Numbered from the stretch's first letter, positions 20,647 to 41,089 are shown. The stretch: 64,000 nt of DNA from an uncultured Planctomycetales bacterium (GCA_964645795.1 CAZYCL010000008.1:8166-72165), one strand, 5' to 3'. Translations and numbers: made by a program. The notes: generated from the sequence alone by a model not told the origin.

Positions 20647-21187
20647 TTTATTATTAATAATAAATAATATAAAATGAAGCTTCTCCTTTATCACTAACGC
20701 CAGATTTTTCACTGCGTCTGCGATTTTTCTCATCACCGATTTTTAAAGCTTTAAAAAACTGCTTTTTAATGCCCTAAAAATAACGCCTGGAACTCTTTCC
20801 CAGTGCATCAAAATTATAACATAATATATATATGAGTCAAGAAAAAAAACCCGAAAAATTTAAGCGCTTACTTTTTCAAATAGAGGTATAAAATTAACTA
20901 AATCATAAGTGTTACAACAACTAGCTAGAATGAGTAAAAAGCCAAACTTTCTTATAAATTCCCATAAAGGGGACAAAGGAGAGGTTAAAAGAGTGCCTCA
21001 ATAAACACTTATGCTGGCTTCTTTCTTGGAATTGATTTAAGCAATATTCTGAATGAATAATCAATCCTTTCAAAATAATCATCCAGATGTTTAGATTGGA
21101 CATTGACTACTAACATAGTGCAGTTTGGACATAAATTTTTATTTAATAGTAAATTGGACATTGTTTTGGATCATGCAAGCAACCAAT
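20647..21187 (-). promoter_or_regulatory. 540-bp AT-rich upstream/leader region of the giant gene with three phased TTGGACAT octamers (ATGTCCAA on the gene strand)
   Basis: TTGGACAT at 21096-21103, 21125-21132 and 21154-21161, with 29-bp spacing. There is no long ORF, and no canonical SD near the ATG at 20646. Confidence 0.5.
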
Positions 21188-22219
21188 TTAATTATCGTTA
21201 CGGATAGACACACTTGTCTGAATAAGCGAATCTAGGGTTATAGGTTGAGGGTCAGGTCGATTATCTAAGTATTGGCGTTCATATACCGGAAAGCTGGCCT
21301 TTTTTTCGATTAGGCGGTTTATAGGCTGAAAAGCGGCCTTATGGAGTTTGCTATTATAAGAAGCGTCTAGTAAACCACCTTGATAATCTCCTGGAGCGTA
21401 ATCATTAACATCTATCACCTCAAGATAGCTATCTTTGCTCGGCGCATCGTAATTCCAGGCACTCCAATAGCCATTCGGACCTGATTCCGACCCCTCAAAA
21501 TGCTCAAGCTTGCCGCGCAAAACGACCGTGCTCGTTCCATAGCCATTCCTGGCCCTGTCTCCAGTCAGTTTCGGTTGGTCGATATTCAAATTCGAAATCG
21601 ATTCTGCCCTATCTCCTTCTATATATTCTATTACTCTCTCAGCATCCTTGGCCTGATAGGTAGTCTTACCTTTTTTAAAGTAGCGCTTAAACTGGCTCAA
21701 GGACTTATCAGACACCTCATAAGAAGAGGCTTGCCATTTTCCGTACTTTTGGGGCAAGCCTAAGCTCATGCGGAAGGCATCGTACTGGGATTGACGCTGC
21801 GAATCTTCCTTATCCATATCCCAACCGTATTTGGCGTATTCATTATCTTCCTTGGTGTTAGTTAGAACCGCCTTGAGTATACTGCTCCAGGGCCGGTGTT
21901 TAGTGCCCAGGCTAATGCCCTGAGGATAGATATTCTCGGTGATCCTCTCGCTTAATCCAAAGGGAAGCTGGTTCTCGATCAATTCATCATTAATGCCGTA
22001 TTCGTCAAATTGCCCGTCGTTGGGCATATACGGCATCTTGGTAGAGTATTTCTTTCCCTCGAATTTAAAGCTCTTTTTGCCTTCCCTCTTAGCCTTGTCA
22101 CGCGCCTCTATCCATTTGGGCTCTTTTAATCGAAGGTTCAAGCCAGAATTGTTGAGCTCATACATCTTCGGGCTATCTTTGATCATCTCCTGCGAAGGAG
22201 GCTCGTAAGAGACGAACAT
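21188..22219 (-). CDS. Hypothetical 343-aa protein, probably the C-terminal extension of the upstream 2,294-aa protein via the A10 frameshift site
   Basis: ORF track. Its reading frame is open upstream all the way into the A10 tract at 22419-22428. GGAG abuts the ATG with zero spacing, so there is no credible RBS. No recognizable domain. Confidence 0.6.
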   Translation of the reverse strand: MFVSYEPPSQEMIKDSPKMYELNNSGLNLRLKEPKWIEARDKAKREGKKSFKFEGKKYSTKMPYMPNDGQFDEYGINDELIENQLPFGLSERITENIYPQGISLGTKHRPWSSILKAVLTNTKEDNEYAKYGWDMDKEDSQRQSQYDAFRMSLGLPQKYGKWQASSYEVSDKSLSQFKRYFKKGKTTYQAKDAERVIEYIEGDRAESISNLNIDQPKLTGDRARNGYGTSTVVLRGKLEHFEGSESGPNGYWSAWNYDAPSKDSYLEVIDVNDYAPGDYQGGLLDASYNSKLHKAAFQPINRLIEKKASFPVYERQYLDNRPDPQPITLDSLIQTSVSIRNDN

Positions 22220-22410
22220 CTCCGCCGCATCCGATCTGTCGCTTATCGAACCGCCGGACCCGCCGCGGCCTCCGCCATCATCAAAGGCAAGCAGGCTGTA
22301 ATCGTCTACGGCATGCAGCTTTTGCAGCGATTGAACGACTATATCGCTTTTTTCATTGACGGGCTGGCTATTTTTCTTTCCTACGGACGGGGCATTGGTA
22401 GTTTCGTTGT

Positions 22411-25400
22411 TTACTTTATTTTTTTTTTACCGGTGGGCACAGCTGTTACAGGGGCGATGATTTTGTTCAAATCGGGCGTAGGATTCGGCAATTGATTGAT
22501 CGTTCTAAGCGGTATAGGCCTTGTAATAGCGAGGTCATCCTCCAGAGTCGACAGCCAATTGGGATTATTGAGAATCTTGGCGGGGTTCCTCTCAATGAAG
22601 GTAAAAACTCCGCCTGATTCATTCGATTCATCGCTTGTTAAAAGCTTATCCAGCTTAACCAGGTTGCTAATTACTTGTTCGTAATTATCTTCGGTGATGC
22701 TGCCGTTCCTGCAGGCTCCTACCAGGATATTTTGCGCACCTTCGGTCAAAATGTAGGTTTTACTCATTACCTTTCGCTCCAGGTCGGGGTTATTAATCGG
22801 TGTAAAGCCGGATATCTGATTTTGACTGGCCGAGACTTGCGGGGTATTTGCGGGCTTGCCAAGCTGGCGCAGGTCATTTAACAGAGAGGCTTGCGTATAT
22901 GTAACTACCGGCACGATATCGATATCCTCGTCATCGTCGACATCCTGAGGCATGCTTAATAGGTCGTCTTTGAAAGTAGACAGCCAGTTCGGATTACCCG
23001 CTATTTTTGCGGAATTAGTAACAAGGAAGTAATCAACTCCTCCCATCTCCTTGTTTACCTCTCTAAGCGTCTTAATAACATCTTGATAGTTAGACTCAGT
23101 TATACTCCCGTTCCTACAGGCAGAGATCAAGGTTTCCTGAGCCTCTTCCCTAAAAGTTTGCGTAGAGTACCTGACCTTTTTCTCTAGTTCGGTATTATTT
23201 ATCGGAGTAAACGCCGATTTATCCGCAACGACTTGCTCTAATTTAGCCAATTGCGTATTTTGAGATCTGTTTTCTTCGATTGCCGCGAGGTTATCAATCG
23301 AAGTGGTTGGTGAGGGAATATTCAAATTGGCATCTTGGGGATCGTTTTTAACCGGCTTAGCCAGGGGTAAAGCAGCGGTTGGCAGATTTTCATCCGGGAA
23401 TTCCTTAACCGGATTGATAATTAAAACCGGATTACTATTGATATCCGCGTCGGTTGTCTTAGGGTTATTGACCGGCACTGTATTGTCTGGCTCATTCATC
23501 CAGTTTAATCGGTTTCCAGGGTCTCTAAGCGGGCCGTGCATAACAGGATCGAAGTTCTCGGGCGCCTCCTCCTGCTTAATATCATTGTTTTTCACGATAT
23601 CTTGAGCCTGCTTCTGCAGGATTAACTCCATAGTAGCTTCCCTTGCGGATTGCGGACTCGAACTTAATGAATTGTTTATTGAATATATAGTATTGTTTAC
23701 TTCAATCAACTTCTTATTGTCTACCGGTTCTACATTGTTGGCAATCAAATCATTCTTTATAGGCTGCTTAACGGGATCAATCAACTGCCCTATATGTCCC
23801 CTAGCATAAGTATTGAGGTCAGACGGATTGATCCCGGAGGTAACAACCTTTTTGGAGTTGAACTCCGTCTTTTTAAAGATCGGATCGGCTCCGATGAATG
23901 TCCTGTCCACGCTTGAGCCATCTTCGCCGAGCTCCTCTGTGAAGGTAGTCCTGAAGGCACCGTAATGATCGGAGCTTTCCGGGCCGCCTGAAACAAAGGT
24001 CTTGCCGGATATATAATGCAGCTGCATGGATTGTAAGGCATTGCCGATAACAAAAGCATCCTGGTCATCGGGATTGCCTGAAGGAGACAGCGCGTCCGCT
24101 GCTTTTTGATCCTGGTCTTTTACAAACTCCCTTATACCCTGCCTGATCTCATCCTCGACATAATTATAGGAAGATAATCTCTTAAAACCCTGCATCTTAC
24201 CGTCGTTGACTTGCTCCTGGATATCTATGCTCCATTTAGGAAGAGGGATCCAGTCGGAGAAGGCCTGCGTGCCCGGGGCAGTAACACCCTTAAATCTCTG
24301 ATACTCAGATACCCTTACCCCGCTATAGGAAGAGCCGGGTGAAACAACATTCTGCGCATCCACGCGGTGCGACGGCCCGATATAAGGACTGTAGCCCTTT
24401 GAGCCTTCATAAAGGGTAAGGCTGTATGAGGTAGAAGGAGCGCCCCCTGCCAGCGTACCGGCAGCCCGATTAGACGGCCCCCTAAGAGAAAGGTCGGGTT
24501 CGGGCAGCTTGAACCCGGTTACGGATATCGGCTCAAGGCGCGGCAGAGGAACGTATTCTCCGTCGAAAACACGCAGGTGTTCTCCGGATTGTAACGGGAT
24601 ATGGTCCACATTGGGCTTGACATTGCCTCTGATATAAGGCTTAAGTTGCGATGCGTCGCCCTCAAACCGCTCTCCTGTTCCTTCATTCTTATATACAGCT
24701 TGGCCTTCTTCGGTATTAGAGCGCACATAAGACCGGCCTTTTGCGTCCTTATAATAAAGACGGTCGCCGTAGCGGCTAAGCAGCTGCGGGTTCAGGTCTA
24801 CCAGTGAGGCGCCCGTAGATTCATCGGTAATAAGCCATTGACGGCCACCATCTCTGGTCTCGGAAGGAAGCCAGGTCTTGGAAAAAAACCAGGCGGTCTG
24901 CTTCAATTCGCCGTCTTTGGATATGCCTTCTTCTACCTGGGCATATAAATCTCCGTTCGGACCCTCCACCAACAATCCGCGTTGCGCTTCAGGAAGTTTA
25001 TTCTTAAACTCATCGAGTTTCTTATCAGCCGCCTCTGCGGATTCTGTATATGATCGAAGTCCGGAAGTATTTATCGCAGATACTATGTCTTTATTGGTTT
25101 GTACCTCTATCCCGGCATTATCCGGCTTAGAAGCAGGCGGAGTATAACTGGGGCGGGCATCGGAATAATCCCTGGTTACCGATAAGGCATGGCCAAAAGG
25201 ACCGTAATAATGCGTTGAGACCCTGTCCAGCTGCACGCCCTGCCAGTCATTGGAATCCAGGCTCAACCTCTCGCCAGAGTAGTAATAGGTGTTGAGCATC
25301 CTGCCGAAGCGGTCAACCGTGGTATACTCAGCAAGCATGGGAGTCGAGCTGTGGTAGAAATCCACGCCCTTCTTAAGGCTGTCAACGACCCCCAGCAGAC

Positions 25401-28400
25401 GGTCAACGGAAGGAGCTTCTCCGTCCGGGCCTTTAGCGCCCTCATAAATCCACTTGAAGTTCTCTTTTATCTCTTCGACAAGCCTTAGCTTATCTTCTTG
25501 CGGCAAATCAGTCAGCTTCGTATTGGCTGTGATTGAGTTCTTGATGGTGGAGTTACTCAAAATATTGGTATCAGCTAAATCGAAATCATTCGGTCCGCCG
25601 ACAGAACCCCTGTAGAGGTTTCTAAAAACCACCTGGCCTTGTGAGACTCCTGCGCGCGAGAGATAATAACTATTATCGATATAATCCGTGACCGCGAACT
25701 TAAGCCGATCTCTTATGTTCCTGGCCGTCTCAAGATCACCGTTTGTTTCCGCCTCTATGGCGCGCTGCTCCAGCGCGTTCATCACATCCGGCATATTGCT
25801 TATTTCCGGGCTTATTACCTGGCTGTTTGTAGTGTAATCATAAATGGAATTATTCATAAAGACGGCGTAATTATCGAAGTTATCCGGCATAAACGCCCAA
25901 TTATTTACTGAAGCGGATAAGGATTCAGCAAGGTTCATGTCGGCACGGTAACTTAAATTAGAGGCTATGCGCATATTGTCGGCGTCAATGACAGTCCCGC
26001 CCTGGGAGATGACGCTTATATGTTGAGTGAACTTATCGCGCACTCCCCACTGGTTCATAAAGGCATTGGGCCCGGTGCCGCTGGCGCGGTAATTGACCGG
26101 CAGCAGGACGCTGTCAACAATAGCTTCGTAGAACTGCTGGCTGGCATCTCCCACCACGCCTCCAACGAAGGTCGTATCTGAACCGTATGCGCTTTTAAGA
26201 TCCTGGTTGCCCTGCTTATTCTGCCTAAAGATAGCATCGACTGTGCCGGCGATAAGGCTTGAGGCTCCCAAGTGCACCAGCTCATTTACGGCGGTAGGGG
26301 TAATCTCTTTTTCTTTGCAGTAATAACCCCAGCCTATTTCGCTAGCGGCAAAGAAGACGTTTTCCACGCTCTTGGCCCCGAGGTTACGCCAGTAACCAAG
26401 CGAACCCCTGGTCTGGAAAGGATTGTTGTATACTTTCTTGGTCTTATAGACTTTTTCTTCGCTTATTTCGCCCGTTACAGGATCTATTACGAATACAGTT
26501 AATTCCTTTCCATGTTTTTTCACAGGCACAAATTCGGTCTTTCCGGTATCTTTATTGAATCTCGTCTTATAAACCTCTGTGCCCTTATCACCCATAATCA
26601 CCCTGCCCTGGAACCAATCCCAGTTGGTAAAGGCTTCGGAGGTAATATTTGCACCGACGTTGGCAACGGCCATCTTGGCCTTATTCATGAACATCTTCTT
26701 ATAGTCAGTATTGCCGTAATAAGTTTCATAATTCATCACTTCCAACAACGCTACTCTTGTGGCGGTAGCAATAATCGGAGTAAGCCCCATGGTACGCATT
26801 GCTTCAAATCCTGAACGTAAACCAAGGCGGTTCTTCAGGGTGTTAATATCCCTGCCGTCCAGGGTGTACATCAGGCCGCCGGTATGCGCGAAGACGTTTT
26901 GGTATACCTGGTTGCTAATCGCTCCTTCATAGACTTTTAGGCCGTTAATAACCTGATCATTAACATCGTTAGGCGCAAGCTGGTATATTGTTCCGTCAGC
27001 CGCTTTTATGCTGTATGGTTTATCCGGATTGCTGGATATCTGTCCAAGTAAGCTAGAATTGACCAGTTCGTCGATTGTTAAAGTGACCAGCTCTGCCTTA
27101 TCTTGGCCAGCCCGGGTCAATTTAAGCGTTATAGTCTGATTGGGATCGCCTAAGGCGAGCACTCCGTACTGACCGATGGACTTAACCCCTTCCTGCAACT
27201 GCCCAGCAGCAACAGCCATGCCTGTTTTGTAAGCCTTGGCTGACTCTAGCATTTCTGCGGTTATGTCGCTTCCCTTAAGCAAGACCTTCTGACCAGTAGT
27301 CGTAAGGGTTATCTCTACAACATCATTAGGCTTTAAGTTTTGGAGCTTGTCCAGGTTAGCGGCAACGGTAGCTATGGTGACCTTTTCCCGGTAAGCGGCA
27401 TCGGGGTTGACAACTTGCAAGGCGTCCAACTTGCCCTGCACATCCAAATACATATATTGTTTTACCTGTTCAACGACTCCGGAAGCGATAAGCTCCTGAA
27501 CTGAGACTTTAACTTTGCTTCCATCTGAGCCTATTAATTCGTAGGCCCCATTGGGATCTATCTTGCCTAAACGAATGTCTTCTTCGACTTTCGAGTACAC
27601 TTCCCCGATGGTAGTCTTTACCCCGCCCAGGGTAACTTCAGTATCAGCGCTTAAATCGTTGGAGATATTTGCCACGTTCACTATCTGGGCCAGTTGCGCG
27701 GCCTGTTCGACATATGACTGATATTGCTTTACCACGCTTGATTTAAGCAGCTCTTCGCCGGTTATCTCGCTAATTGTCCCGTTAGAGGTCGAAATCTTAT
27801 ACACTTCTTCTTTTTTTATCTGGCCTTTTAAAATGGCTTCCTTGAGGCTTGCGTCATTTAATACTTCGTTAAGAGTAATGCTTCCTTTTACCACGCCGTT
27901 GCCTATTTGCTGGGCAGCCGCAACAGCGATTATCCCATTTAGATAGGTTTTGATACCTATTATTGCCTCGTTGTTAACATCGATATCGTTTGCCGACACA
28001 TAGATTATCTTACCGTTACGATTGACTTCATACACCGCATCCTTGGTTAGAGCGCCGTCATCCAACAGGTCAGCTACAAAGGCTTCGCAGGCTGCCAGCT
28101 CTCCGCCGCTGACACCCTTCTTCTTGCCTTTCTTATCTATGCCGTAGGCGACGTCGCTCTGCCCATCCGAAAGATACGCGCCCTGGTTGTCGAGCTTACC
28201 GCCTTCAGCGCGAGCTATCATCGGGGCAAGGGTATTCTGGACAAAGGCTGCGGCGTAATTGCCAACCATGTCGCCGACTATCTGGGCGACAGTCTCGTCA
28301 ACCGGGCCGATGATCTTCTTGCCCTTTTTAGTATATATGCCTTCCTCGAGGTTCTGCTTTACGTACTCGGAGACAAACAGACGCACAGTCCCGGATATGA

Positions 28401-29295
28401 CGTCCAGGGCAAAATACGACAGGGCGTGGATCAGGCCATTGACCGGGCTAGTAAGCATCTCCTGGCCGAACCTGATATAGGGGTTGGCACCTACGGCAGA
28501 AAGCCTGAAAATCCCCCCTACTGTTTCGTCCGAGTACTGGCTGAAGTTCCTGATAATCTGCTTTACCTTCTGGATAGGGGTATCCCATATGGGCTTGAGG
28601 ATGTTCTTGTACACCCAAACAGCGGCCTTCTTAATCGCGTTACATACGGGCTTAATCACATTATTAAAGAACCACACGAGCGCATTCCATACCGCCTTAA
28701 GCGCATCCATAACCGCCTTTTTAATGGCCTGAATAATCTGGCCTATAATGGTATTGGCAACAACGCTGGTGGTGGTCTGGACAACTACCTGCGTACCGAC
28801 ACTAGTCGCAGTTTGAGTTCCGGCTTGAGTTAAAACTTGAGTCCCTGTATCTGCAGCTGTCCCTGCAAGGGCTTCGGTCCCTGCCTGCGTTCCTACTTCA
28901 GTGCCGACATCAGCGCCTCCCTCAATAAGGCCGCTGACTATACCGCCTACGAGGCTTGCAGCGCAACCTGCTACCATTGACCAAAACTGGCCTTTCGTGA
29001 TCTTGACCTTGCCGACTTCGATCATTGTTTCGCCATAGGTGTCGTACATGGCGAAATAAAGTATGGTGCCGACACCATCACTAACTATGGAGCTAACGCA
29101 GCCCCATACAGGGTTTATGAGACAGCCCACAGCAATACCTACTCCGCTGATCGCCCCTGCTCCCATAGACTCAAGCGTAGTGGTAGTGCCATAATTACCC
29201 GACCTGGCAAATGCAGGGGGCGTAAGGGAAGAAAAAAAGAAGGCAAACGCGGTGATAAGGCTGATTACTTTTATAAATTTACTTTTTCTTTTCAT
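22411..29295 (-). CDS. Giant secreted protein, 2,294 aa. Signal peptide, Gly/Thr/Gln-rich and amphipathic-helix N-terminal region, tandem-duplicated ~105-aa C-terminal module.
   Basis: ORF track. N-terminus is MKRKSKFIKVISLITAFAFFFSSLTPPAFA. The C-terminus contains two homologous modules (FTPINNxxLExKV...ACRNGSITExNYxxVIxxL...NPNWLSTxxDDL). No catalytic motif recognized. Confidence 0.8.
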   Translation of the reverse strand: MKRKSKFIKVISLITAFAFFFSSLTPPAFARSGNYGTTTTLESMGAGAISGVGIAVGCLINPVWGCVSSIVSDGVGTILYFAMYDTYGETMIEVGKVKITKGQFWSMVAGCAASLVGGIVSGLIEGGADVGTEVGTQAGTEALAGTAADTGTQVLTQAGTQTATSVGTQVVVQTTTSVVANTIIGQIIQAIKKAVMDALKAVWNALVWFFNNVIKPVCNAIKKAAVWVYKNILKPIWDTPIQKVKQIIRNFSQYSDETVGGIFRLSAVGANPYIRFGQEMLTSPVNGLIHALSYFALDVISGTVRLFVSEYVKQNLEEGIYTKKGKKIIGPVDETVAQIVGDMVGNYAAAFVQNTLAPMIARAEGGKLDNQGAYLSDGQSDVAYGIDKKGKKKGVSGGELAACEAFVADLLDDGALTKDAVYEVNRNGKIIYVSANDIDVNNEAIIGIKTYLNGIIAVAAAQQIGNGVVKGSITLNEVLNDASLKEAILKGQIKKEEVYKISTSNGTISEITGEELLKSSVVKQYQSYVEQAAQLAQIVNVANISNDLSADTEVTLGGVKTTIGEVYSKVEEDIRLGKIDPNGAYELIGSDGSKVKVSVQELIASGVVEQVKQYMYLDVQGKLDALQVVNPDAAYREKVTIATVAANLDKLQNLKPNDVVEITLTTTGQKVLLKGSDITAEMLESAKAYKTGMAVAAGQLQEGVKSIGQYGVLALGDPNQTITLKLTRAGQDKAELVTLTIDELVNSSLLGQISSNPDKPYSIKAADGTIYQLAPNDVNDQVINGLKVYEGAISNQVYQNVFAHTGGLMYTLDGRDINTLKNRLGLRSGFEAMRTMGLTPIIATATRVALLEVMNYETYYGNTDYKKMFMNKAKMAVANVGANITSEAFTNWDWFQGRVIMGDKGTEVYKTRFNKDTGKTEFVPVKKHGKELTVFVIDPVTGEISEEKVYKTKKVYNNPFQTRGSLGYWRNLGAKSVENVFFAASEIGWGYYCKEKEITPTAVNELVHLGASSLIAGTVDAIFRQNKQGNQDLKSAYGSDTTFVGGVVGDASQQFYEAIVDSVLLPVNYRASGTGPNAFMNQWGVRDKFTQHISVISQGGTVIDADNMRIASNLSYRADMNLAESLSASVNNWAFMPDNFDNYAVFMNNSIYDYTTNSQVISPEISNMPDVMNALEQRAIEAETNGDLETARNIRDRLKFAVTDYIDNSYYLSRAGVSQGQVVFRNLYRGSVGGPNDFDLADTNILSNSTIKNSITANTKLTDLPQEDKLRLVEEIKENFKWIYEGAKGPDGEAPSVDRLLGVVDSLKKGVDFYHSSTPMLAEYTTVDRFGRMLNTYYYSGERLSLDSNDWQGVQLDRVSTHYYGPFGHALSVTRDYSDARPSYTPPASKPDNAGIEVQTNKDIVSAINTSGLRSYTESAEAADKKLDEFKNKLPEAQRGLLVEGPNGDLYAQVEEGISKDGELKQTAWFFSKTWLPSETRDGGRQWLITDESTGASLVDLNPQLLSRYGDRLYYKDAKGRSYVRSNTEEGQAVYKNEGTGERFEGDASQLKPYIRGNVKPNVDHIPLQSGEHLRVFDGEYVPLPRLEPISVTGFKLPEPDLSLRGPSNRAAGTLAGGAPSTSYSLTLYEGSKGYSPYIGPSHRVDAQNVVSPGSSYSGVRVSEYQRFKGVTAPGTQAFSDWIPLPKWSIDIQEQVNDGKMQGFKRLSSYNYVEDEIRQGIREFVKDQDQKAADALSPSGNPDDQDAFVIGNALQSMQLHYISGKTFVSGGPESSDHYGAFRTTFTEELGEDGSSVDRTFIGADPIFKKTEFNSKKVVTSGINPSDLNTYARGHIGQLIDPVKQPIKNDLIANNVEPVDNKKLIEVNNTIYSINNSLSSSPQSAREATMELILQKQAQDIVKNNDIKQEEAPENFDPVMHGPLRDPGNRLNWMNEPDNTVPVNNPKTTDADINSNPVLIINPVKEFPDENLPTAALPLAKPVKNDPQDANLNIPSPTTSIDNLAAIEENRSQNTQLAKLEQVVADKSAFTPINNTELEKKVRYSTQTFREEAQETLISACRNGSITESNYQDVIKTLREVNKEMGGVDYFLVTNSAKIAGNPNWLSTFKDDLLSMPQDVDDDEDIDIVPVVTYTQASLLNDLRQLGKPANTPQVSASQNQISGFTPINNPDLERKVMSKTYILTEGAQNILVGACRNGSITEDNYEQVISNLVKLDKLLTSDESNESGGVFTFIERNPAKILNNPNWLSTLEDDLAITRPIPLRTINQLPNPTPDLNKIIAPVTAVPTGKKKIK
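22419..22428 (-). other. A10 homopolymer (slippery tract) at the 3' end of the 2,294-aa CDS. Candidate -1 frameshift, transcriptional slippage or phase-variation site.
   Basis: Minus strand reads CCG GTA AAA AAA AAA ATA AAG TAA. The -1 frame from inside the A run continues with no stop for 68 codons into the ATG of the 343-aa ORF. Confidence 0.6.
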
Positions 29296-29695
29296 TTGAC
29301 TGATTTAAACTTTTTTAAAATCATTAAGAAGCGCTAAATAAAAATCACGACTCAATCTGGTCGCAGCTTCTCTAAACTTTTCAACCTAACCTTCAGATCT
29401 TCTTTGCATGGTAAGTATATCATAAAGCTATATTTTATATCAAGCGTAATTTATAAGAATATGAAACCGTTTTCTTTAGTTAAAGAAGAGCCAGGATGTG
29501 GACTCTTTAAAAGCATTTGGTATGCGAAAAAACTGCCTAAAATAGGCTTAGGGAGTGCTTTAAAGCTTTGACTTTGCCTCAAATCAAGACTGTGTGGTCT
29601 AGCATAAATAAGAATGGACAATAAAACGTTTGAATGGACATTAACATATATAGAAGTAATGTCCAAAATGACTTTAATTTCGGTGTCGGCTTCGG
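29296..29695 (-). promoter_or_regulatory. AT-rich upstream region of the 2,294-aa gene containing an ATGGACA(A/T) direct pair and an inverted ATGTCCAA
   Basis: ATGGACAA at 29612-29619, ATGGACAT at 29632-29639, ATGTCCAA at 29657-29664. The last two form the palindrome TGGACAT-N17-ATGTCCA. The 71-aa ORF at 29451..29666 is judged spurious. Confidence 0.45.
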
Positions 29696-32467: not shown

Positions 32468-32473
32468 GCGCTT

Positions 32474-33334: not shown

Positions 33335-33336
33335 CT

Positions 33337-33510: not shown

Positions 33511-33513
33511 AAG

Positions 33514-34419
33514 TTAATATCCAGAAGAATCGCTTTTAGTAAACAATACGGTTACCATCGAGCCAAGATCAGGACCGGCATAATGCTGCACGACGTTGAT
33601 ATCGGCCTTGCCTCTTGACGATTCAAACGACATAAACGCGCTTTGGCTGATCATCTTTTCGATATTCAACCCGCCCTCAACCGGGGCCATGCCTTTTAGG
33701 GAAGGGCTTAATTTCAGCTCCTTACCCTTCTTCATTTTTCTTGCCTCTCTGTTGTACTCTTCGACCACATCCGAACCCTGCCGGTCCGAGACCATCTTCC
33801 AGCCGTAAGCCGGCATACTGGAACGGTAAAAATCCGCTGCCTGCGCAGGGGTCAGTTTTGTCTGGTAGGCATAGGCGGTGTAAAAAAGGTTCGGCTGAGG
33901 GCTGGCCAGACGTATGCTGTCCGGAGGCCGCGGGATAAAAGAAATGTCCTGGCCCGGCAGGTCCTCTTTGGGCAGCTCCGAAAAAGCCGTATCTCTAGAC
34001 GTTGGCCTTAACTGCTCCAAAGGAAGGCTGCCCGGCGACTCAATATGCTTTCCGGCGACGATGCGGGTCGAGCCGTCTTTGCTTTTTACGGAAATGGTCG
34101 CTACCTTATCGCCCTTCTTAAACCTCAAGAATACCTCTCCGGTCTTAGGGTTCCTCTGGTCCATGATATTTTGAAAACCTGATGCTGCAAGGCTGCGGCG
34201 GAAGAACTCCGCTGTATCCAAATCGCTTTGCTGCGTGTAATAAAGAAAGGATTTGACTGGCCTGCCGCCGTGGATAATATCCTTTTGGTCCTGCAAGACG
34301 GCATCTGCCGGGACAGCCAGCTCAAAATCGATATCGCTTTCTGCCCAAGAGAGGCCCCCCGGAAAAAGTAAAACCGCGAACGCGGCTAAGAACAGAAAAA
34401 ACCTGGCTCCTGTACGCAT
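33514..34419 (-). CDS. Secreted hypothetical protein (signal peptide), pilus-locus associated
   Basis: ORF track. MRTGARFFLFLAAFAVLLFPGGLSWA; no recognizable domain. Confidence 0.55.
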   Translation of the reverse strand: MRTGARFFLFLAAFAVLLFPGGLSWAESDIDFELAVPADAVLQDQKDIIHGGRPVKSFLYYTQQSDLDTAEFFRRSLAASGFQNIMDQRNPKTGEVFLRFKKGDKVATISVKSKDGSTRIVAGKHIESPGSLPLEQLRPTSRDTAFSELPKEDLPGQDISFIPRPPDSIRLASPQPNLFYTAYAYQTKLTPAQAADFYRSSMPAYGWKMVSDRQGSDVVEEYNREARKMKKGKELKLSPSLKGMAPVEGGLNIEKMISQSAFMSFESSRGKADINVVQHYAGPDLGSMVTVLFTKSDSSGY

Positions 34420-34420
34420 A

Positions 34421-35752: not shown

Positions 35753-35777
35753 CTACCTGCTCCTTCTACGCTTGATA

Positions 35778-37292: not shown

Positions 37293-37304
37293 AGTATTGC
37301 CCCC

Positions 37305-38069
37305 TTACTGGACAGGAGTGCTCCAGCTCCTGCTTCTTGAGATAACGTTGCCGACGCTTTCGGTATTATATTCGTAACGGTTCTCTTCGTTCAAAAGCAA
37401 GCCCTGACCACCTGTTTCGTAATTCGCGCGCTCTTCATATTGAGGGGCCGGGGTATAGTCATCCTCAGGATGCCTGCCCTCGGAGGTATCAAAACGGGTA
37501 TAAATAGTTGTGGCTAAAGTATCCTGCAGCTGCGAGGAGCGGGCGTTAGCAACTATACCGCCTGCCTCTCTTTTAGAAAACGAGGTGGAGTATGACTCAT
37601 CTCGCACGCTGGTTTCGCGATAGACGTTAACCGGCATCTTGGCTTCCTGCTTGCCGCCCATGGCATCGTAAATAACCTTGTCCTCGCGCGGAAGACCATC
37701 GTCCGGATCTCCTATCATCATCCCGTTTATCTCATAAAAGGCGAACGACTGTTCATCTTTGGCACCCTGCGCTCCGGGCTGACCCATCTGCCACATGACG
37801 CTGGCAGTAGAGCTAAGGCTGGTTGCCTGGCCCTGGCCCCAGCCGCCGGATAAGCTTGCCAGGCGGGTATCTTTTTTTAGGGAGTAGGAGACGCTGCTGT
37901 TTTTTTCGTAGGCCTTTTGCAGGGCCTTGCGGAAAGCTTCCATCTTGAGCTGATTCTGCATCTCAAGCCGCTGGCCGTAAGTGACGAGGGTGGAGAGCAC
38001 CAGGATCATGATCGTGCCGAATACGGCAAGCTCTATCGCTGCCTGGCCTCTATTCCTGCAAATTCTCAT
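37305..38069 (-). CDS. TadE/TadF-like pseudopilin
   Basis: MRICRNRGQAAIELAVFGTIMILVLSTLV carries the canonical TadE-family motif GQAAIE(L/F)A. Confidence 0.6.
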   Translation of the reverse strand: MRICRNRGQAAIELAVFGTIMILVLSTLVTYGQRLEMQNQLKMEAFRKALQKAYEKNSSVSYSLKKDTRLASLSGGWGQGQATSLSSTASVMWQMGQPGAQGAKDEQSFAFYEINGMMIGDPDDGLPREDKVIYDAMGGKQEAKMPVNVYRETSVRDESYSTSFSKREAGGIVANARSSQLQDTLATTIYTRFDTSEGRHPEDDYTPAPQYEERANYETGGQGLLLNEENRYEYNTESVGNVISRSRSWSTPVQ

Positions 38070-38111
38070 ACCACTCTCCTGCTTAATGTATATTTATAAA
38101 GACAAAACGCC

Positions 38112-38609
38112 TTACCAAAAACCCATACCCGACGGGGTTGGTATGTCCAGGCTCCAATCGAAGTCAAATAGCCACCCCAGATCTTCCAGTCCGGATAAGT
38201 CCAGGTCTAGCCCTAAACCGCTTCCTGTGTTGTTCTCGGTAACACCGATCGCGTTCAGCAATGCCTCTGCCCCTTCATCTACGCCGCCTGAAGTGCTGGT
38301 TTGGCTCTCTGAGCTGGAAGCTACGGTGCTTATGACTACCGAGGATTCTGTCCCGGAGTGATTTTCCTGAAGCCGGTAATTGGAGGCCTGCGTGCCGGTA
38401 GCATATACCCTTGAGGTCTCATCGCCCTTATAATCGTGCGGCTCCTGGCCCCAGCCTTCCCATAGAAGATAATTGGCGGTAGCGCCGATCTTCTTCATGT
38501 ATGCGCGCTTAAGCGGGTTGCCAAAAAGAGTAAAGAGGCTGAGTGCCACTCCGAGCGTCACTACCCAGCTTATCAGGCTGTTGGCCTTGTTTGAACTAGC
38601 GATCTTCAT
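38112..38609 (-). CDS. Membrane-anchored Ser/Thr-rich hypothetical protein in the pilin array
   Basis: ORF track. It has one N-terminal TM helix (SLISWVVTLGVALSLFTLF) and no prepilin motif. Confidence 0.5.
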   Translation of the reverse strand: MKIASSNKANSLISWVVTLGVALSLFTLFGNPLKRAYMKKIGATANYLLWEGWGQEPHDYKGDETSRVYATGTQASNYRLQENHSGTESSVVISTVASSSESQTSTSGGVDEGAEALLNAIGVTENNTGSGLGLDLDLSGLEDLGWLFDFDWSLDIPTPSGMGFW

Positions 38610-38914
38610 TGATAGGCCTCCACTCTCTCGCTCCTGGTCGTAGTCATAGAGCTGGAGCCGGTTGTTTGTGTCGCGCCGTCCGGCACGCCGGAGCCGCCTA
38701 CGCGGGTTGTGGAGCTGGAGGAGGTAGTGGTGATGATATTGGAGGTAGTGTGGCCGGGAGAGTACTGCGGGCCGACGTTATCAGCCTGCTCTTTAAGCCC
38801 TCCCTGATAGGCCCTTTTGATATAAAACTGCATCACCAGCAAAGCGCTGATGACCACCGCCACCAGTAGCGCATACTCGGGTATGCTTTGAGCTTTTCGC
38901 GACCAAAACCTCAC
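38606..38914 (-). CDS. Flp/TadE-like prepilin paralog (102 aa) with a Ser/Thr-rich tail
   Basis: MRFWSRKAQSIPEYALLVAVVISALLVMQ followed by ...TTTSSSSTTRVGGSG... Confidence 0.65.
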   Translation of the reverse strand: MRFWSRKAQSIPEYALLVAVVISALLVMQFYIKRAYQGGLKEQADNVGPQYSPGHTTSNIITTTSSSSTTRVGGSGVPDGATQTTGSSSMTTTRSERVEAYQ

Positions 38915-38949
38915 TACCTCCTCCTTGTTAGAGCAGCAAGCTAATATGC

Positions 38950-39366
38950 TTAAAAATCAGCCACGACATCAGTAGGCAAATCACCGGCTTCATAGCCTTC
39001 GGCTGCTGCGCCGTCCATCCTGGCATTGCTGGTCGTAGTGCGGGTGCCTCCTGAGCGCTCCGAATAAGTCAGAGCACCCTCAGGAGCTCCGATGGAAATG
39101 GAGCCGCTAAGCGAGCTGATATTTCCTGAACCTGAAGTAATGGTTTCCTGACCGGACAAAATCCTGCTTACCCTGGTTGTCGTGCCTGTCGCAGAGAAGC
39201 CTTCGCCCATCTGATCAGAAGACTCCTTCAGGTGTCCGGAGTAGCCTCTTTTGATAAAAGTCTGCATAAGTATAAGGGCAGCAATAACCACAGCCATGAG
39301 TATCACATACTCGATTATTGACTGGCCTTTTCTTTTACGAGAAAAAACCATATTCCACCTCCTCAT
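38950..39366 (-). CDS. Flp/TadE-like prepilin paralog (138 aa)
   Basis: MRRWNMVFSRKRKGQSIIEYVILMAVVIAALILMQ. Confidence 0.65.
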   Translation of the reverse strand: MRRWNMVFSRKRKGQSIIEYVILMAVVIAALILMQTFIKRGYSGHLKESSDQMGEGFSATGTTTRVSRILSGQETITSGSGNISSLSGSISIGAPEGALTYSERSGGTRTTTSNARMDGAAAEGYEAGDLPTDVVADF

Positions 39367-39374
39367 TCTGATTT

Positions 39375-39722
39375 CTATTCGACTTCCATGCCGCCGGTTG
39401 CGGTCTCCAAAGAAACGGAGTTGGTTATGGAAGTAGTCACCCCGCCTGCTGTTTCTCCACCGCCCTTCCTCATGGTCTTGGTATAGCTATCCGCGGTCAC
39501 GTTGGTAGCGGAACCCTCTGAACTGAAAAGAGTTACGCTTGCATCGTTAGTCAACGTATCGTTTCCCGCGTCCAACAAATAATTCACCGCCTGCTTGCTT
39601 TTTGTACGCATACCACCCTTAAGCATCATCTGCATGACTCCCGCAGCAACCGCAGCCACCAGGGCGATGACAATCGCGTACTCGGCAACTGATTGCGCTT
39701 TCCTGGATAACCTCATAAACAC
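39375..39722 (-). CDS. Flp/TadE-like prepilin paralog (115 aa)
   Basis: MFMRLSRKAQSVAEYAIVIALVAAVAAGVMQ. Confidence 0.65.
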   Translation of the reverse strand: MFMRLSRKAQSVAEYAIVIALVAAVAAGVMQMMLKGGMRTKSKQAVNYLLDAGNDTLTNDASVTLFSSEGSATNVTADSYTKTMRKGGGETAGGVTTSITNSVSLETATGGMEVE

Positions 39723-39805
39723 CTCCTTAAAAAATAATTCGTATGACGACAGCGCTTCACAAAACCCTATATCTGTGATTGGCTGTTAACCTCCTCACCC
39801 CGATC

Positions 39806-40006
39806 TTATTGAAATACGCCGGTGTTCAGATTGCCCGCAACGTTGGTTACGGCATCGGTCACTGAATCATAGGACGTCTCAAGCTTGTTCTTCATGCCGC
39901 CCTGACCGCCTGCTCCCAATAAAACAACGATTATAGCCATGATGACCACCGCTAAAAGCAGGGTGTACTCCAGGATGCTCTGGCCCTTTCTCTGTTTTTT
40001 CCTCAT
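39806..40006 (-). CDS. Flp/TadE-like prepilin paralog (66 aa)
   Basis: MRKKQRKGQSILEYTLLLAVVIMAIIVVLLG. Confidence 0.65.
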   Translation of the reverse strand: MRKKQRKGQSILEYTLLLAVVIMAIIVVLLGAGGQGGMKNKLETSYDSVTDAVTNVAGNLNTGVFQ

Positions 40007-40060
40007 TCTCTCACCTCCCTTTTTTTAAAAATTTTATACCCTCAACAACTGCTCCATATC

Positions 40061-40465
40061 TTATTGGTAGTGCATTTCTTGCGCGTGCCCGCCACCGCCA
40101 CCACCTCCGCCGCCCGTGCTGCCGCCGGGGTTATGTATGGGGTCGGGATCGTCATATTCGACATAATCCGGCTCGCCCTGGTGCGGATTAGTCTGCACCA
40201 AAGGATTATTGCCTACCCCGGGAGAGAAAGACGTGGCGCTATTACCTCCGGGAGGAGCGGCAAGCGTGTGAGCGTTAGTCTGCCCCACTGCGTCGCTGCG
40301 CCTGTAACTTAACTCCTCTTGTATCAACTTTAACTTGGCGTTTACCGAACGGTAGAGATACCTGTGGGTAAGGGCAATGGCGCCGGCGACAACCATGAAA
40401 AGTATGACGTATTCGATTATGCTCTGCGCTTTACCGCTGGCTCTGGGCATTTTGCCCTCCTGCAA
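40061..40465 (-). CDS. Flp/TadE-like prepilin paralog (134 aa) with a poly-Gly C-terminus
   Basis: MPRASGKAQSIIEYVILFMVVAGAIAL followed by ...GGSTGGGGGGGGGHAQEMHYQ. Confidence 0.65.
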   Translation of the reverse strand: MQEGKMPRASGKAQSIIEYVILFMVVAGAIALTHRYLYRSVNAKLKLIQEELSYRRSDAVGQTNAHTLAAPPGGNSATSFSPGVGNNPLVQTNPHQGEPDYVEYDDPDPIHNPGGSTGGGGGGGGGHAQEMHYQ

Positions 40466-40488
40466 TCTTTTGGCCCTGAAAGGCCGCT

Positions 40489-40734
40489 CTAATCCTCGCT
40501 AAATGACTCGTCGTCCGGCGGATCGGATATGACGATGCTCCCCGCGACCATCTCCCTGTAGGTGTTAAAATGATCCGTAAAGGCGTTGTTCGACGGGCGC
40601 TTGAGCATGACATTAATAATAACCACCACGGAAGTCACGCTTATCGCCGCCAGGATGATCAGCTCCACGGTACTCTGACCTCTTCCTCTCTTCATTGGCT
40701 TTAGCCTCATTTCGAAAAAAAATCCGAAAACCAA
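40489..40734 (-). CDS. Flp/TadE-like prepilin paralog (about 70-81 aa; start ambiguous)
   Basis: ...MKRGRGQSTVELIILAAISVTSVVVIINVML. There are three candidate in-frame Met starts. Confidence 0.6.
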   Translation of the reverse strand: MVFGFFFEMRLKPMKRGRGQSTVELIILAAISVTSVVVIINVMLKRPSNNAFTDHFNTYREMVAGSIVISDPPDDESFSED

Positions 40735-41089
40735 ACGGCTTCCGGAGCGATGAATAACGGATTTTTTAAAAGCTTTAGTAACTGCCTAAAAAATAAAAAA
40801 GAAATAGAGAAACTTGAAAATCCGGCATCGCTCCGTGGCCATCGTTGCCGTTTTTTTCAATTTAACTATAGCATCTATATATATTGGTGTCAATCATATT
40901 TAGCCAATGGTTGAAAGCGTTTTCATAATAAAAAACAGGGTTTACTGTTGAGATAAACTGAAACCTTTTCACGGACAACTTGCACCTTTTAGGTAAAATA
41001 TCAATGAATATAAAGAAAAGGATTGTTTATTGACAAAATGGACGTTTGATGATATATTGACTTTTAAGAAATGTCCAATCTGAGGGAAA
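40735..41089. promoter_or_regulatory. Divergent intergenic region with a canonical sigma70-type promoter (TTGACA-17-TATATT) for the 771-aa gene, followed by ATGTCCAA in the leader
   Basis: TTGACA at 41030-41035, a 17-bp spacer (containing ATGGACGT), TATATT at 41053-41058, ATGTCCAA at 41071-41078, GAGGG RBS, ATG at 41090. The pilin operon promoter on the other strand lies in the same interval. Confidence 0.55.

Follow-up and report, generated by a model that had tools for sequence, protein, structure and literature searches.

A 13-bp motif conserved in Omnitrophota as a putative operator of an adjacent DNA-binding protein

The giant genes of Omnitrophota comprise up to tens of thousands of codons and are a current puzzle. 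The window analysed here, a 64-kb stretch of DNA, contains two giant genes, a Tad-like pilus locus and a gene for a 771-aa protein with an N-terminal HTH, and it raises the question of whether a short word repeated in front of these genes marks a common regulator. The initial annotation had proposed that giant genes and pilus genes are under the joint control of one DNA-binding regulator, perhaps the 771-aa protein itself. This proposal is supported by synteny, by motifs at promoters, by arrays at giant gene 1 in 15 of 15 loci and by a nearly invariant recognition helix. With a probability of roughly 0.6, the 771-aa family is an autoregulated, possibly transposase-derived regulator that binds the 13-bp sites through its HTH and links the giant-gene locus with that of the Tad-like pilus. 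The identity of the binder, DNA as its binding target and the regulatory outcome are what we infer here from sequence.

The motif and its surroundings in the window

The exact octamer TTGGACAT/ATGTCCAA occurs seven times in the window compared to 1.45 expected copies, and none of 100 shuffles contained seven or more. It is the core of an asymmetric 13-bp motif, A-W-Y-GTCCA-W-W-C-T-G, with AATGTCCAATCTG as the best copy. Exact octamers are found at 21096, 21125 and 21154 (+, 29-bp spacing), 29659 (-), 41071 (-), 54337 (-) and 59823 (+), degenerate ones at 29614 (ATGGACAA), 29634 (ATGGACAT) and 41038 (ATGGACGT). Five of the exact copies are located in AT-rich intergenic regions, of which the window has only three (20647-21187, 29296-29695 and 40698-41089; GC 0.30-0.33). 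In these 1,333 bp, about 0.05 copies are expected by arithmetic at regional composition. The octamers at 54337 and 59823 are situated within histidine-kinase genes, and two coding matches correspond to chance level. A 13-mer matrix trained only on relatives, with the window left out, was applied with a threshold of at least 9 bits and yielded nine matches. Eight of them are exactly the copies cited in the initial annotation; the ninth, a modest match of 12.4 bits at 43240 (-), lies inside the 771-aa gene. The two octamers in histidine-kinase genes received no score with this matrix, and scans with octamer and matrix revealed no copy in the other intergenic regions of the window.

The motif had been described as confined to three regions. 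This holds for the eight cited copies, which are all present, all non-coding and all in the three AT-rich intergenic regions, but not for the bare octamer with its two matches in histidine-kinase genes. The copy cited from 29612 (ATGGACAA) exists, but was found at 29614. The arrangement TGGACAT-N17-ATGTCCA (TGGACAT at 29635-41, ATGTCCA at 29659-65) had been read correctly, as had the TTGACA-17-TATATT promoter of the 771-aa gene. The TGGACAT-N17-ATGTCCA pair is a lineage-specific arrangement of the asymmetric site and no conserved palindrome.

Table 1. Genes, motif copies and promoters in the window. Here and throughout the text, promoters and transcription starts are consensus predictions.
Feature	Position	Strand	Remarks
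Giant gene 1	1..20646	-	>6,882 aa; continues beyond window start
Best predicted sigma-70 promoter, giant gene 1 (TTGACT-16-TATAAT with TG)	20813..20840	-	11/12 matches
Motif copy AATGTCCAATCTA, array member 3, closest to giant gene 1, sense	21092..21104	-	exact octamer 21096; 22.0 bits
Motif copy TATGTCCAAACTG, array member 2, 29 bp from neighbours	21121..21133	-	19.4 bits
Motif copy AATGTCCAATTTA, array member 1	21150..21162	-	14.2 bits
Giant gene 2	22411..29295	-	2,294 aa
Best predicted sigma-70 promoter, giant gene 2 (TTGATA-18-TATACT with TG)	29414..29443	-	10/12 matches
Motif copy ATTGTCCATTCTT, sense to giant gene 2	29610..29622	-	15.4 bits
Motif copy AATGTCCATTCAA, sense to giant gene 2, 20 bp from ATTGTCCATTCTT copy	29630..29642	-	17.1 bits
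Motif copy AATGTCCAAAATG, antisense to giant gene 2	29658..29670	+	exact octamer; 13.8 bits
First of ~six small class-III-signal (Flp-like) pilin genes	40489..40695	-	repeat family D1
Predicted sigma-70 promoter, first pilin gene (TTGACA-17-TATAGT with TG)	40865..40893	-	11/12 matches
Near-consensus predicted sigma-70 promoter, 771-aa gene (TTGACA-17-TATATT with TG)	41030..41058	+	11/12 matches; kept in relatives
Weak motif copy AACGTCCATTTTG, within -35/-10 spacer of 771-aa promoter, antisense	41034..41046	-	10.4 bits
Best motif copy AATGTCCAATCTG	41070..41082	+	23.3 bits (matrix maximum); same position in 61/75 species
771-aa candidate regulator gene	41090..43405	+	N-terminal HTH, linker, C-terminal domain

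The N-terminus of giant gene 1 (FKSGFKRWIRVVAF..PEQVAQAVEYDW) is kept in Omnitrophota giant genes, and no Pfam domain was detected in its first 5,000 aa. Member 1 of its array, AATGTCCAATTTA, lies 26 nt past the stop codon of a 343-aa gene. This gene is an orphan: no relative was found in the fetched loci, and it could not be used as a synteny anchor. The predicted promoter of giant gene 1 is located 253 bp downstream of the array, and the same layout is found at 15 of 15 orthologous loci. Giant gene 2 is lineage-specific: none of the fetched loci contains a homolog, and no Pfam domain was detected in it. Its predicted promoter lies 168 bp downstream of the closest motif copy. The copies had been assigned to promoters and leaders, which is correct for those at the 771-aa gene promoter, whereas the copies of the giant genes are situated 168-253 bp upstream of the best predicted -35.

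The best copy corresponds to about +5 to +20 of the predicted 771-aa transcript and extends into the Shine-Dalgarno sequence. Both copies at this promoter are located 145-185 bp upstream of the predicted pilin -35. The pilin genes head a Tad-like operon that reaches to ~31010. The Tad/Flp-type locus encodes a CpaF-type ATPase, a secretin, RcpC, two TadB/C-like platform proteins, TadE/G-like proteins and the small class-III-signal pilins; no prepilin peptidase was identified within the window. In relatives, the pilin genes are found directly downstream of the regulator gene. The link between motif and pilus genes is indirect.

A sigma-54 promoter was considered for a AAAGCTTT..AACTGCCTAAAA element (minus strand TTAGGCAG..GC) present at 20745-20785, 29507-29545 and 40765-40790. 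This reading was dropped because the GG-to-GC offsets are 10, 11 and 12 at the three loci and the position of the look-alike relative to the predicted promoters is inconsistent. In addition, the window proteins scanned do not contain a Sigma54_activat domain.

Conservation of the motif and the adjacent gene across Omnitrophota

The 771-aa protein has homologs in 97 species genomes of GTDB, which belong almost without exception to Omnitrophota. They lie in the same synteny with a Tad-like pilus and a giant gene, and the motif is found at the promoter of nearly every one of them. The family gene is single-copy, occupies one conserved syntenic position across ~80 species and always adjoins motif sites in this conserved synteny. 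Enrichment of the motif in non-coding DNA, suggested earlier as a check on the regulator proposal, was measured in 84 related loci (1.34 Mb) and confirmed: ATGTCCAA has 92 copies in the ~6% called non-coding, whereas 200 composition-matched permuted octamers reached a mean of 1.8 and a maximum of 27 in the same DNA.

At the regulator gene, the motif was counted in the 75 species-level loci that contain the start of a family gene. A sense copy is present between -45 and -15 of this start in 61 of the 75 species, and in 46 of them at exactly -20. This proximal copy abuts the Shine-Dalgarno sequence, and its distance from the start codon is 9 nt in each of 46 species. The constant distance arises because the site overlaps the Shine-Dalgarno sequence. 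A hairpin formed by motif and Shine-Dalgarno sequence (TCCAatcTGGA) is found in some species, is absent from the window and was discarded as not conserved. A distal sense copy occurs next to the -35 of the family gene in 38 of 75 loci, and proximal and distal copies flank a predicted TTGACA-17-TATAnT promoter in the relatives. Antisense copies are found in 11 of 75 loci, some of them inside the -35/-10 spacer as in the window; L015, L038 and L084 carry such copies in or beside the spacer.

The starts of giant gene 1 orthologs are preceded by one to four direct sense copies in 15 of 15 loci, each with a predicted promoter (11-12 of 12 consensus matches) downstream of the array. The distance from the last array copy to this promoter amounts to 187-437 nt in 14 loci and to 64 nt in one. 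Array copies are almost always sense to both the upstream and the downstream genes and often begin directly after a stop codon. The spacings of neighbouring copies cluster near 20, 30 and 40 bp, with a vector strength R of 0.46 at 10.5 bp (99th percentile of the null, 0.37). In one clade, two copies are located within the coding region of the giant gene and are invariant at synonymous positions. The geometry differs between the two kinds of target: At the regulator gene, copies lie beside -35 and around +1, at the giant genes at a variable distance upstream of the predicted promoters.

Near-consensus promoters as such do not imply the motif: at 39 of 101 such promoters in the same loci, the interval from -450 to +60 is free of copies. 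The motif is found at orthologous positions across diverged species with diverged flanks (75 species at the regulator gene, all 15 loci at giant gene 1), and its position is kept among species whose family proteins are only 25-40% identical. The 13-base word, which recurs at the same places in ~75 related uncultured Omnitrophota species, is probably the operator by which the adjacent DNA-binding protein controls its own gene and those of the giant surface proteins.

In a metagenome scan for tandem motif pairs, 56 of 120 matches were tandem-repeat-like, nearly all without relevant gene context. About 12 were GC-rich contigs with a different extended word, ATGTCCAAACTCCAGAG, on which no family-type HTH was found. 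Since only ~23 of the 120 matches have a Tad or giant-gene context, the scan reflects the regulon with considerable noise. On metagenome contigs, arrays also precede other large secreted-protein genes with the family gene not in view. These contigs are short, so they are neutral, not contrary, for the regulator assignment.

The candidate regulator, its proposed mode of action and the alternatives

The 771-aa protein is composed of an HTH (aa 6-53), a low-complexity P/E/A/Q linker (~aa 70-340) and a C-terminal domain (aa 340-771). Linker length is very variable in the family (0-400 residues), and the first 62 residues are the most conserved segment. The recognition helix V-S-K-S-S-I-N is nearly invariant, and S-K-S-x-x-N within it is invariant. 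The structural model places helices at residues 9-21, 27-38 and 44-53 (pLDDT ~85-89). In Foldseek searches, it matched the Pax paired domain 6pax (probability 1.00, rmsd 1.6 Å over 53 residues) and 1k78 (probability 0.99); the Pax6 and Pax5 paired domains superpose. Of 21 members, 15 match Pfam HTH_32, 8 match HTH_Tnp_Tc3_2 and 8 match HTH_33, in each case below the Pfam cut-off. As modelled, the N-terminal domain is a Pax/transposase-type three-helix HTH with a paired/Tc1-like fold. One odd helix, G-K-S-R-I-N in L078, is accompanied by a CCACT variant of the site, which is also present in genomes with the normal helix. Because recognition helix and site are both nearly invariant, covariation provides no test of the binder. 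The 771-aa family is proposed as the binder on the basis of co-location and co-conservation, not of covariation.

One protein would bind each asymmetric site through its N-terminal HTH. At its own gene, a high-affinity site would extend from about the transcription start into the Shine-Dalgarno sequence, and in about half of the species a second site ~52-54 or 62-64 bp upstream, beside -35, would be occupied. Such a layout would correspond to classical negative autoregulation. At the giant genes, two to four mostly co-oriented sites ~150-450 bp upstream of strong sigma-70 promoters might serve as remote operators, by which expression of the giant genes would depend on how much regulator is present or on its state. 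These arrays could act by looping, by bridging or as upstream activating sites, and both activation and repression are possible. Sites hundreds of bp upstream of near-consensus promoters are no textbook layout for repression or activation. Given their co-orientation and their starts after stop codons, the arrays may also act in read-through RNA or as a roadblock.

It is rather unlikely that the motif, while being a genuine DNA operator, is bound by a different regulator encoded elsewhere, e.g. a response regulator, and that the 771-aa gene is just one of the targets. Such a regulator would be compatible with arrays on contigs without a visible family gene and with a 771-aa protein tied to the site by location and conservation, not directly. 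Several two-component proteins are encoded in the window, and in L184 and L187 the array directly follows the gene of a NarL-type response regulator. However, no gene other than that of the family always accompanies the motif, and the two keep a fixed distance in at least 61 of 75 species. Within the family, the HTH is the most conserved segment. Moreover, an asymmetric site of ~13 bp suits a monomeric Pax/transposase-type HTH and is unlike the sites of NarL- and OmpR-type regulators, which are usually dimeric or tandem half-sites of 7-10 bp.

For the C-terminal domain, Tn5 transposase takes the first five places among the PDB matches (E 3e-4 to 1e-3, probability 0.80-0.91), with TM-scores of only 0.22-0.25. 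The predicted order is beta-beta-beta-alpha-beta-alpha-beta, followed by a beta-rich insertion and a helix. It is compatible with the RNase-H-like core of IS4/Tn5-type transposases, in which the catalytic E is located on the helix behind such an insertion. The corresponding helix of the family carries Y-x2-R-W-x4-E-E-x-F-x5-K and resembles the YREK signature of IS4 (Y-2-R-3-E-6-K) with altered spacing. Candidate acidic residues, mapped onto Tn5 by eye and not by alignment, are kept in ~80-90% of the members. Searches at the sequence level were negative: No DDE Pfam family matched in 21 members at E up to 1, hhalign of the family profile with the Tn5 sequence (verified against PDB 3ecp) gave a probability of 0.1, the comparison of the profile with PDB sequences returned nothing relevant, and tblastn against plasmids revealed no transposase link. 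Judged by the structural matches, the 771-aa family is possibly transposase-derived. An active insertion sequence was rejected, as terminal inverted repeats are lacking, the copies are located upstream only and are mostly direct, and the gene occupies one syntenic position.

A bolder version of the preferred reading would regard the family as a domesticated Tn5-like transposase that still pairs distant end-like sites. Through its HTH, it would bridge its own promoter to giant-gene arrays 10-20 kb away and also copies flanking a giant-gene promoter, as in the clade with two intragenic copies. The spacer of up to ~400 residues and the C-terminal body would then organise or tether the locus or even cut DNA. 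We consider this scenario unlikely.

Quite unlikely is the view that the sites are recognition or synapsis sites of a still-active transposase-like enzyme that pairs, cuts or rearranges DNA by inversion, excision or bridging. It would accommodate Tn5 transposase as best structural match, the predicted strand/helix order, the YREK-like motif and the widely kept acidic residues. Furthermore, the 771-aa gene is inverted in this lineage relative to nearly all relatives, and a precedent is provided by Piv of Moraxella, a transposase-like protein that controls pilin genes by inversion. However, four other assemblies show the same inverted state, so there is no hint of switching. Neither the absence of flanking inverted ends and the mostly direct copies nor a single-copy gene in conserved synteny across the phylum point to such an enzyme, and the family member P0016 has lost two of three candidate acidic residues, yet retains HTH and site. 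The placement relative to -35, -10 and +1 suits an operator, not a recombination site.

It is very improbable that the motif acts in RNA, where proteins or sRNAs would bind it at the 5' end of the regulator transcript and, ahead of the giant genes, in 3' untranslated or intercistronic RNA. The proximal copy is predicted to be transcribed; it directly borders the Shine-Dalgarno sequence, and in 46 species it is always separated from the start codon by 9 nt. Array copies, almost always sense, begin after stop codons. However, overlap with the Shine-Dalgarno sequence accounts for the constant distance, the distal copy lies upstream of -35, and antisense copies recur, some of them in the untranscribed -35/-10 spacer. 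In the window, only two tRNAs reach the Rfam gathering score, a search of 20600-21250 at E up to 1 yielded nothing meaningful, and no conserved pairing partner was found. A spacing periodicity close to the DNA helical repeat has no obvious meaning for RNA.

Chance, the composition of AT-rich intergenic DNA or a generic promoter part such as a -35 look-alike (TTGGACA vs TTGACA) is refuted as far as sequence analysis can: TGGACA does resemble TTGACA, the promoter scan flags one such match (41077-41049) and the three regions are unusually AT-rich, but the observed count was reached in none of the shuffles, permuted octamers fall far short of the 92 non-coding copies, the conserved CCAAWCTG exceeds any -35 resemblance, a -35 in the usual orientation would face away from the genes, the motif is missing at 39 of 101 strong promoters in the related loci and its position outlasts the divergence of the family proteins.

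Significance and comparison with known systems

The analysis provides a phylum-wide regulatory word together with a candidate regulator in the same locus. The candidate regulon is small and comprises the regulator, the conserved giant gene, lineage-specific giants like giant gene 2 and other large secreted proteins. In any Omnitrophota genome, the motif can be used as a search key for co-regulated genes.

It has been described that a conserved type II secretion / Tad-like locus adjoins Omnitrophota giant genes (West-Roberts et al., 2023, bioRxiv 10.1101/2023.11.21.568195; 2026 preprint, 10.64898/2026.06.07.730766). The locus studied here is alike in rotamase, RcpC, secretin, ATPase, class-III-signal pilins, two GspF/TadB-like genes and a giant gene. 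In a term search of both papers, the word 'promoter' is absent from both; 'motif' appears only in one reference-list title of 10.1101/2023.11.21.568195 and is absent from 10.64898/2026.06.07.730766; 'regulator' is absent from the former and denotes domains inside long proteins in the latter. Among the passages returned by this search, none deals with the control of giant genes, a locus regulator or the 771-aa family. Our search for a published description of the motif or the regulator found none.

Regulators of the lambda cI/Cro, LexA and TetR types are similar in that an operator around +1 is joined by an auxiliary one near -44, at a distance of 5 or 6 helical turns, and that the same sites recur across a small regulon. 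In contrast to them, the motif is asymmetric and has no dyad, the protein architecture is unrelated, and the target arrays lie hundreds of bp upstream of near-consensus promoters.

Type IV pilin genes are controlled by PilS-PilR and sigma-54. With PilS-PilR and Piv, the 771-aa family would share that a dedicated, here candidate, regulator is encoded beside pilin genes, and Piv is likewise transposase-like and pilin-linked. Here, however, neither a fitting sigma-54 -24/-12 element nor an AAA+ enhancer-binding domain nor a sign of an invertible segment was found.

The transposases of IS1 (InsA), IS30 and IS911 bind the left terminal repeat and thereby repress the promoter of their own gene. Similarly, the 771-aa family is predicted to use an N-terminal transposase-type HTH on an asymmetric site of about a dozen bp over its own promoter and start, and the best structural matches of its C-terminal domain are Tn5 transposase. 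The relation to Tn5 is visible in a weak fold search only, not in sequence. In contrast to IS transposase genes, the 771-aa gene is not mobile; it is single-copy, kept in phylum-wide synteny and has no inverted ends. Further differences are the linker of 0-400 residues and the additional sites, which form arrays before unrelated giant genes.

A further comparison is with Pax-like host regulators, in which a transposase-type DNA-binding domain is reused on host genes via copies of its recognition sequence. The bacterial analogues known to us are all of other kinds, such as TnpB-derived TldR repressors and RAYTs at REP sequences. The difference to Pax-like regulators is that the host is bacterial and that the 771-aa protein possibly retains a whole transposase-like body. 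If the transposase ancestry is true, this would be, to our knowledge, a rare bacterial case of a DDE-type transposase body reused as a regulator of host genes. If the bridging reading is true as well, a complete transposase would have been adapted in bacteria to an architectural role in regulating the largest genes known.

The motif and its setting in the window

The octamer TTGGACAT/ATGTCCAA is found seven times in the window where 1.45 copies are expected, a number reached by none of 100 shuffles. The initial annotation had described it as confined to non-coding DNA at three loci, the two giant genes and the divergent pilin/771-aa gene region. Five exact copies lie precisely where it had placed them, and its degenerate copies within a base or two. 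All eight are non-coding and located in the only three AT-rich intergenic regions of the window (GC 0.30-0.33; window 50%), one ahead of each giant gene and one separating the first pilin gene from the 771-aa gene; non-coding DNA elsewhere is free of copies. Confinement holds for these eight, but two further exact octamers lie inside kinase genes (54337 and 59823), which is about chance expectation. Both fail a 13-mer matrix built from relatives only. Scanning of the window with this matrix at a threshold of at least 9 bits yielded nine sites, eight of them the copies already described. The ninth (12.4 bits, CACGTCCAAACTG) falls within the 771-aa gene, towards its 3' end. It lies some 165 nt past the DUF192 stop codon on the opposite strand, codes for S-L-D-V at a poorly conserved position and is probably a chance match.

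Alignment of 227 copies from relatives gave the 13-mer consensus A(0.80) A/T T/C G T C C A A(0.82) T/A C T(0.82) G(0.67). This means, the motif is asymmetric and longer than the octamer. In the non-coding DNA of related loci (about 6% of 1.34 Mb as called), 92 copies of ATGTCCAA are present, compared to a mean of 1.8 and a maximum of 27 for 200 permuted octamers in the same fraction. Furthermore, 39 of 101 near-consensus promoters in these loci lack a copy between -450 and +60. Accordingly, the word is not a generic part of promoters, the alternative named in the initial annotation, and chance or a general promoter feature retains only a negligible probability. The motif is almost certainly a real conserved functional element. 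A second word, YGTCCCT, recurs in relatives, often in two copies 23 nt apart (RCGTCCCTGCTTWGG ... GTCCCTAAT). Its positions are about 120 and 97 nt before the family gene, for instance in six loci, and after arrays in five others. Within 300 nt of the main motif, 65 copies were counted against 16 expected, an enrichment of about four-fold. Its sole relative in the three AT-rich regions of the window is a GTCCCC variant at 20969.

Features of the window. Promoters are consensus predictions.
Feature	Position	Strand	Remarks
Giant gene 1	1-20646	minus	>6,882 aa, runs off window start
Leader hairpin, giant gene 1	20787-20803	minus	
Predicted giant gene 1 promoter	20840-20813		253 bp from array
343-aa gene	21188-22219		orphan, between giant genes 1 and 2
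Giant gene 2	22411-29295		2,294 aa
Leader hairpin, giant gene 2	29346-29365	minus	
Predicted giant gene 2 promoter	29443-29414		168 bp from motif sites
23S_rRNA_IVP-type four-helix-bundle gene	29696-30118	minus	CGGT/ACCG-rich inverted repeats on both sides (region 29673-30976)
Stretch without long ORF	30161-31009		
Two direct repeats of ~245 bp	30558-30976		beyond 23S_rRNA_IVP-type gene; 92-93% identity over best segments
Tad-like pilus operon	about 31010-40695	minus	two T2SSF-type proteins, TadE/G-like protein, ~six small class-III-signal pilins
Leader hairpin, first pilin	40723-40746	minus	10-bp stem, ~30 nt 5' of start codon
Predicted pilin promoter	40893-40865		145-185 bp from sites at divergent 771-aa promoter
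771-aa gene	41090-43405	plus	after pilus operon
Ninth matrix match	43240-43252	minus	
DUF192, ParA-CpaF fusion ATPase, secretin, RcpC, rotamase	beyond 771-aa gene	minus	

The order rotamase, RcpC, secretin, ATPase, DUF192, 771-aa family gene, small pilins, further genes, two T2SSF genes and giant gene is kept in relatives, and the N-terminus of their giant gene (FKSSFKxWIRVVAF..PEQVAQAVEYDW) matches that of giant gene 1. Earlier work on Omnitrophota has described this neighbourhood as a 'type II secretion-like locus upstream of giant genes' (10.1101/2023.11.21.568195; 10.64898/2026.06.07.730766); the term matches in these two papers mention no promoter, no regulatory motif and no regulator acting on this locus. 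A literature search with the octamer returned a single, unrelated match on vascular smooth muscle cells. The 343-aa gene found only its own sequence in a search of 5.8 billion proteins, giant gene 2 has no homolog in any compared locus, and neither contains a Pfam domain. Both seem to be insertions peculiar to this lineage, placed between the pilus operon and the conserved giant gene.

Conserved sites at the family gene and remote arrays at its candidate targets

Searching the protein collection with the 771-aa protein gave 21 homologs, and relatives of its gene were detected in 97 GTDB species genomes, nearly all labelled Omnitrophota (80 of the 97 were retrieved). The window, too, therefore most likely belongs to an Omnitrophota genome. 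The family gene was ruled out as a mobile element, as it is single-copy, lacks inverted ends and keeps its position across the phylum. Among the 75 species-level loci that contain its start, 61 carry a sense copy 15-45 nt upstream of the start codon, in 46 cases beginning exactly at -20 (ATGTCCAATCT-GGAGGnnnn-ATG). A second sense copy at -110 to -46 is present in 38 loci and an antisense copy in 11, several of the latter within or beside the -35/-10 spacer like in the window. Loci without a strict proximal copy have mostly a slightly more upstream copy or a one-base variant. The copies flank a predicted near-consensus TTGACA-17-TATAnT promoter: The distal copy ends 3-12 nt 5' of the -35 box, and the start of the proximal copy approximately coincides with the predicted transcription start. 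They are mostly 52-54 or 62-64 bp apart, which corresponds to about five or six helical turns. In the window, the best copy (23.3 bits, the matrix maximum) lies just past the -10 box of the 771-aa gene and reaches into the Shine-Dalgarno sequence, and a weak antisense copy lies within the spacer.

The arrangement at the giant genes is different from that anticipated. The initial annotation had assigned all copies to promoters and leaders, which is true of the 771-aa gene only, since the predicted giant-gene promoters lie well downstream of the copies. These are, therefore, remote upstream elements: three sense copies 29 bp apart for giant gene 1, two sense copies 20 bp apart and one antisense copy for giant gene 2. 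All 15 loci that include the start of a giant-1 ortholog have one to four sense copies 500-900 nt upstream of the conserved FKSSFK codon, and the arrays often begin directly after the stop codon of the preceding gene. In each of the 15, a predicted promoter with 11-12 of 12 consensus matches follows the last copy, at a distance of 187-437 nt in 14 loci and 64 nt in one. The giant-gene and pilin loci of the window follow the same array-then-promoter plan. As giant gene 2 lacks homologs in the compared loci, its copies are probably a lineage-specific addition to the regulon. The predicted leaders of the two giant genes and of the first pilin gene in the window each contain a terminator-like hairpin followed by a T-run; the hairpins have no Rfam match and may be attenuators. 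In four related loci, a conserved GAACCACTGATTACACGG-like stretch follows the last array copy, and in the related locus L007 a motif-containing 103-bp unit is tandemly duplicated (11620-11830).

A scan of metagenomes for tandem motif pairs was noisy, yet recovered further T2SSF/array/giant-gene loci. In three contigs, arrays are located between rsmI and a gene for a large secreted protein (contig L119: at least 1,716 aa); the rsmI-like stop codon marks their start, about 200 nt upstream of the secreted-protein gene (L119, 5535-5575). In two others, they follow a NarL-type response-regulator gene and precede genes whose secreted products comprise at least 670 and 818 aa. Such positions point to targets outside the Tad locus, and the regulon seems to cover large surface or secreted proteins in general. 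An unrelated repeat element may account for the pairs of a ATGTCCAAACTCCAGAG-like word that occur in 11 GC-rich contigs (GC 0.53-0.63), none of which shows a Tad, giant-gene or family-gene context.

The candidate binder and its proposed mode of action

The first 62 residues are the most conserved part of the family and comprise an invariant recognition helix, S-K-S-x-x-N, as well as a basic tail with the sequence P-V-G-R-R. The predicted three-helix HTH can be superposed on Pax paired domains (6pax: rmsd 1.6 A at a probability of 1.00) and matches transposase HTH families weakly, below the Pfam cut-offs (HTH_32 in 15, HTH_Tnp_Tc3_2 and HTH_33 in 8 each of 21 members). The HTH leads into a low-complexity linker whose length varies between about 0 and 400 residues; in most members it is rich in E/K/A, in the window protein in P/E/A/Q. 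For the C-terminal 430 residues, a confident fold was predicted (pLDDT 85.8, pTM 0.86) with the order beta-beta-beta-alpha-beta-alpha-beta, a beta-rich insertion and a helix with Y-x2-R-W-x4-E-E-x-F-x5-K. Tn5 transposase accounts for each of its five best PDB matches (E 3e-4 to 1e-3), but TM-scores reach only 0.22-0.25, and a comparison of the family with Tn5 at the sequence level found nothing. Hence, the HTH is likely to be of transposase origin; for the C-terminal body, such an origin is plausible but unproven.

The pairing of one site at about +1 of a strong promoter with another one five or six turns upstream is typical of negative autoregulation, and many insertion-sequence transposases throttle their own promoters in the same way. 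The family protein would bind the site at about +1, helped by the upstream site, and repress its own gene. We assign this reading, which is derived from comparative sequence data, a probability of about 0.6. In most species, the family gene is immediately followed by co-directional pilin genes, which may share its control. At the giant genes, arrays upstream of promoters that are already near-consensus, and in one clade extra copies inside the gene, suggest that control operates through looping or bridging and not by simply recruiting RNA polymerase, although activation from the upstream sites is conceivable, too.

Binding of the sites by another regulator instead of the family protein is unlikely. 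Somewhat less probable still is that the protein acts as a recombinase or synapsis enzyme to this day: In this lineage, the 771-aa gene runs in the opposite direction to DUF192 and the pilins, with which it is co-directional in nearly all relatives, but the same arrangement with identical upstream sequence is found in four other assemblies of the organism. Action of the motif in RNA, with which the common orientation of array copies and flanking genes would agree, is a marginal option. Antisense copies recur, some copies lie in untranscribed promoter spacers, and neighbouring copies prefer spacings near 20, 30, 40, 52 and 63 bp. A helical periodicity is only suggestive (vector strength 0.46 at 10.5 bp vs a null 99th percentile of 0.37, with related species not being independent). 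In addition, a clade of eight species has two copies 39 nt apart within the giant-gene coding region, 237 and 276 nt past the FKSSFK codon, which are absent from giant gene 1 of the window. They are read as S-S-N-L (TCGTCCAATCT) and M-S-N-Q (ATGTCCAATCA), and their synonymous positions are invariant in all eight species while flanking codons vary. Antisense and spacer copies, spacing preference and these invariant positions favour recognition of double-stranded DNA, and the motif is probably a protein-bound DNA site.

The original observation on the octamer is thus confirmed and extended. The proposal that one regulator, perhaps the 771-aa protein, would co-control giant and pilus genes is backed by strong comparative evidence. 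An autoregulated HTH protein with its own operators represents a familiar kind of system; this one is set apart by the protein family, its possible transposase origin, the huge variable spacer, the remote arrays and the giant-gene targets.
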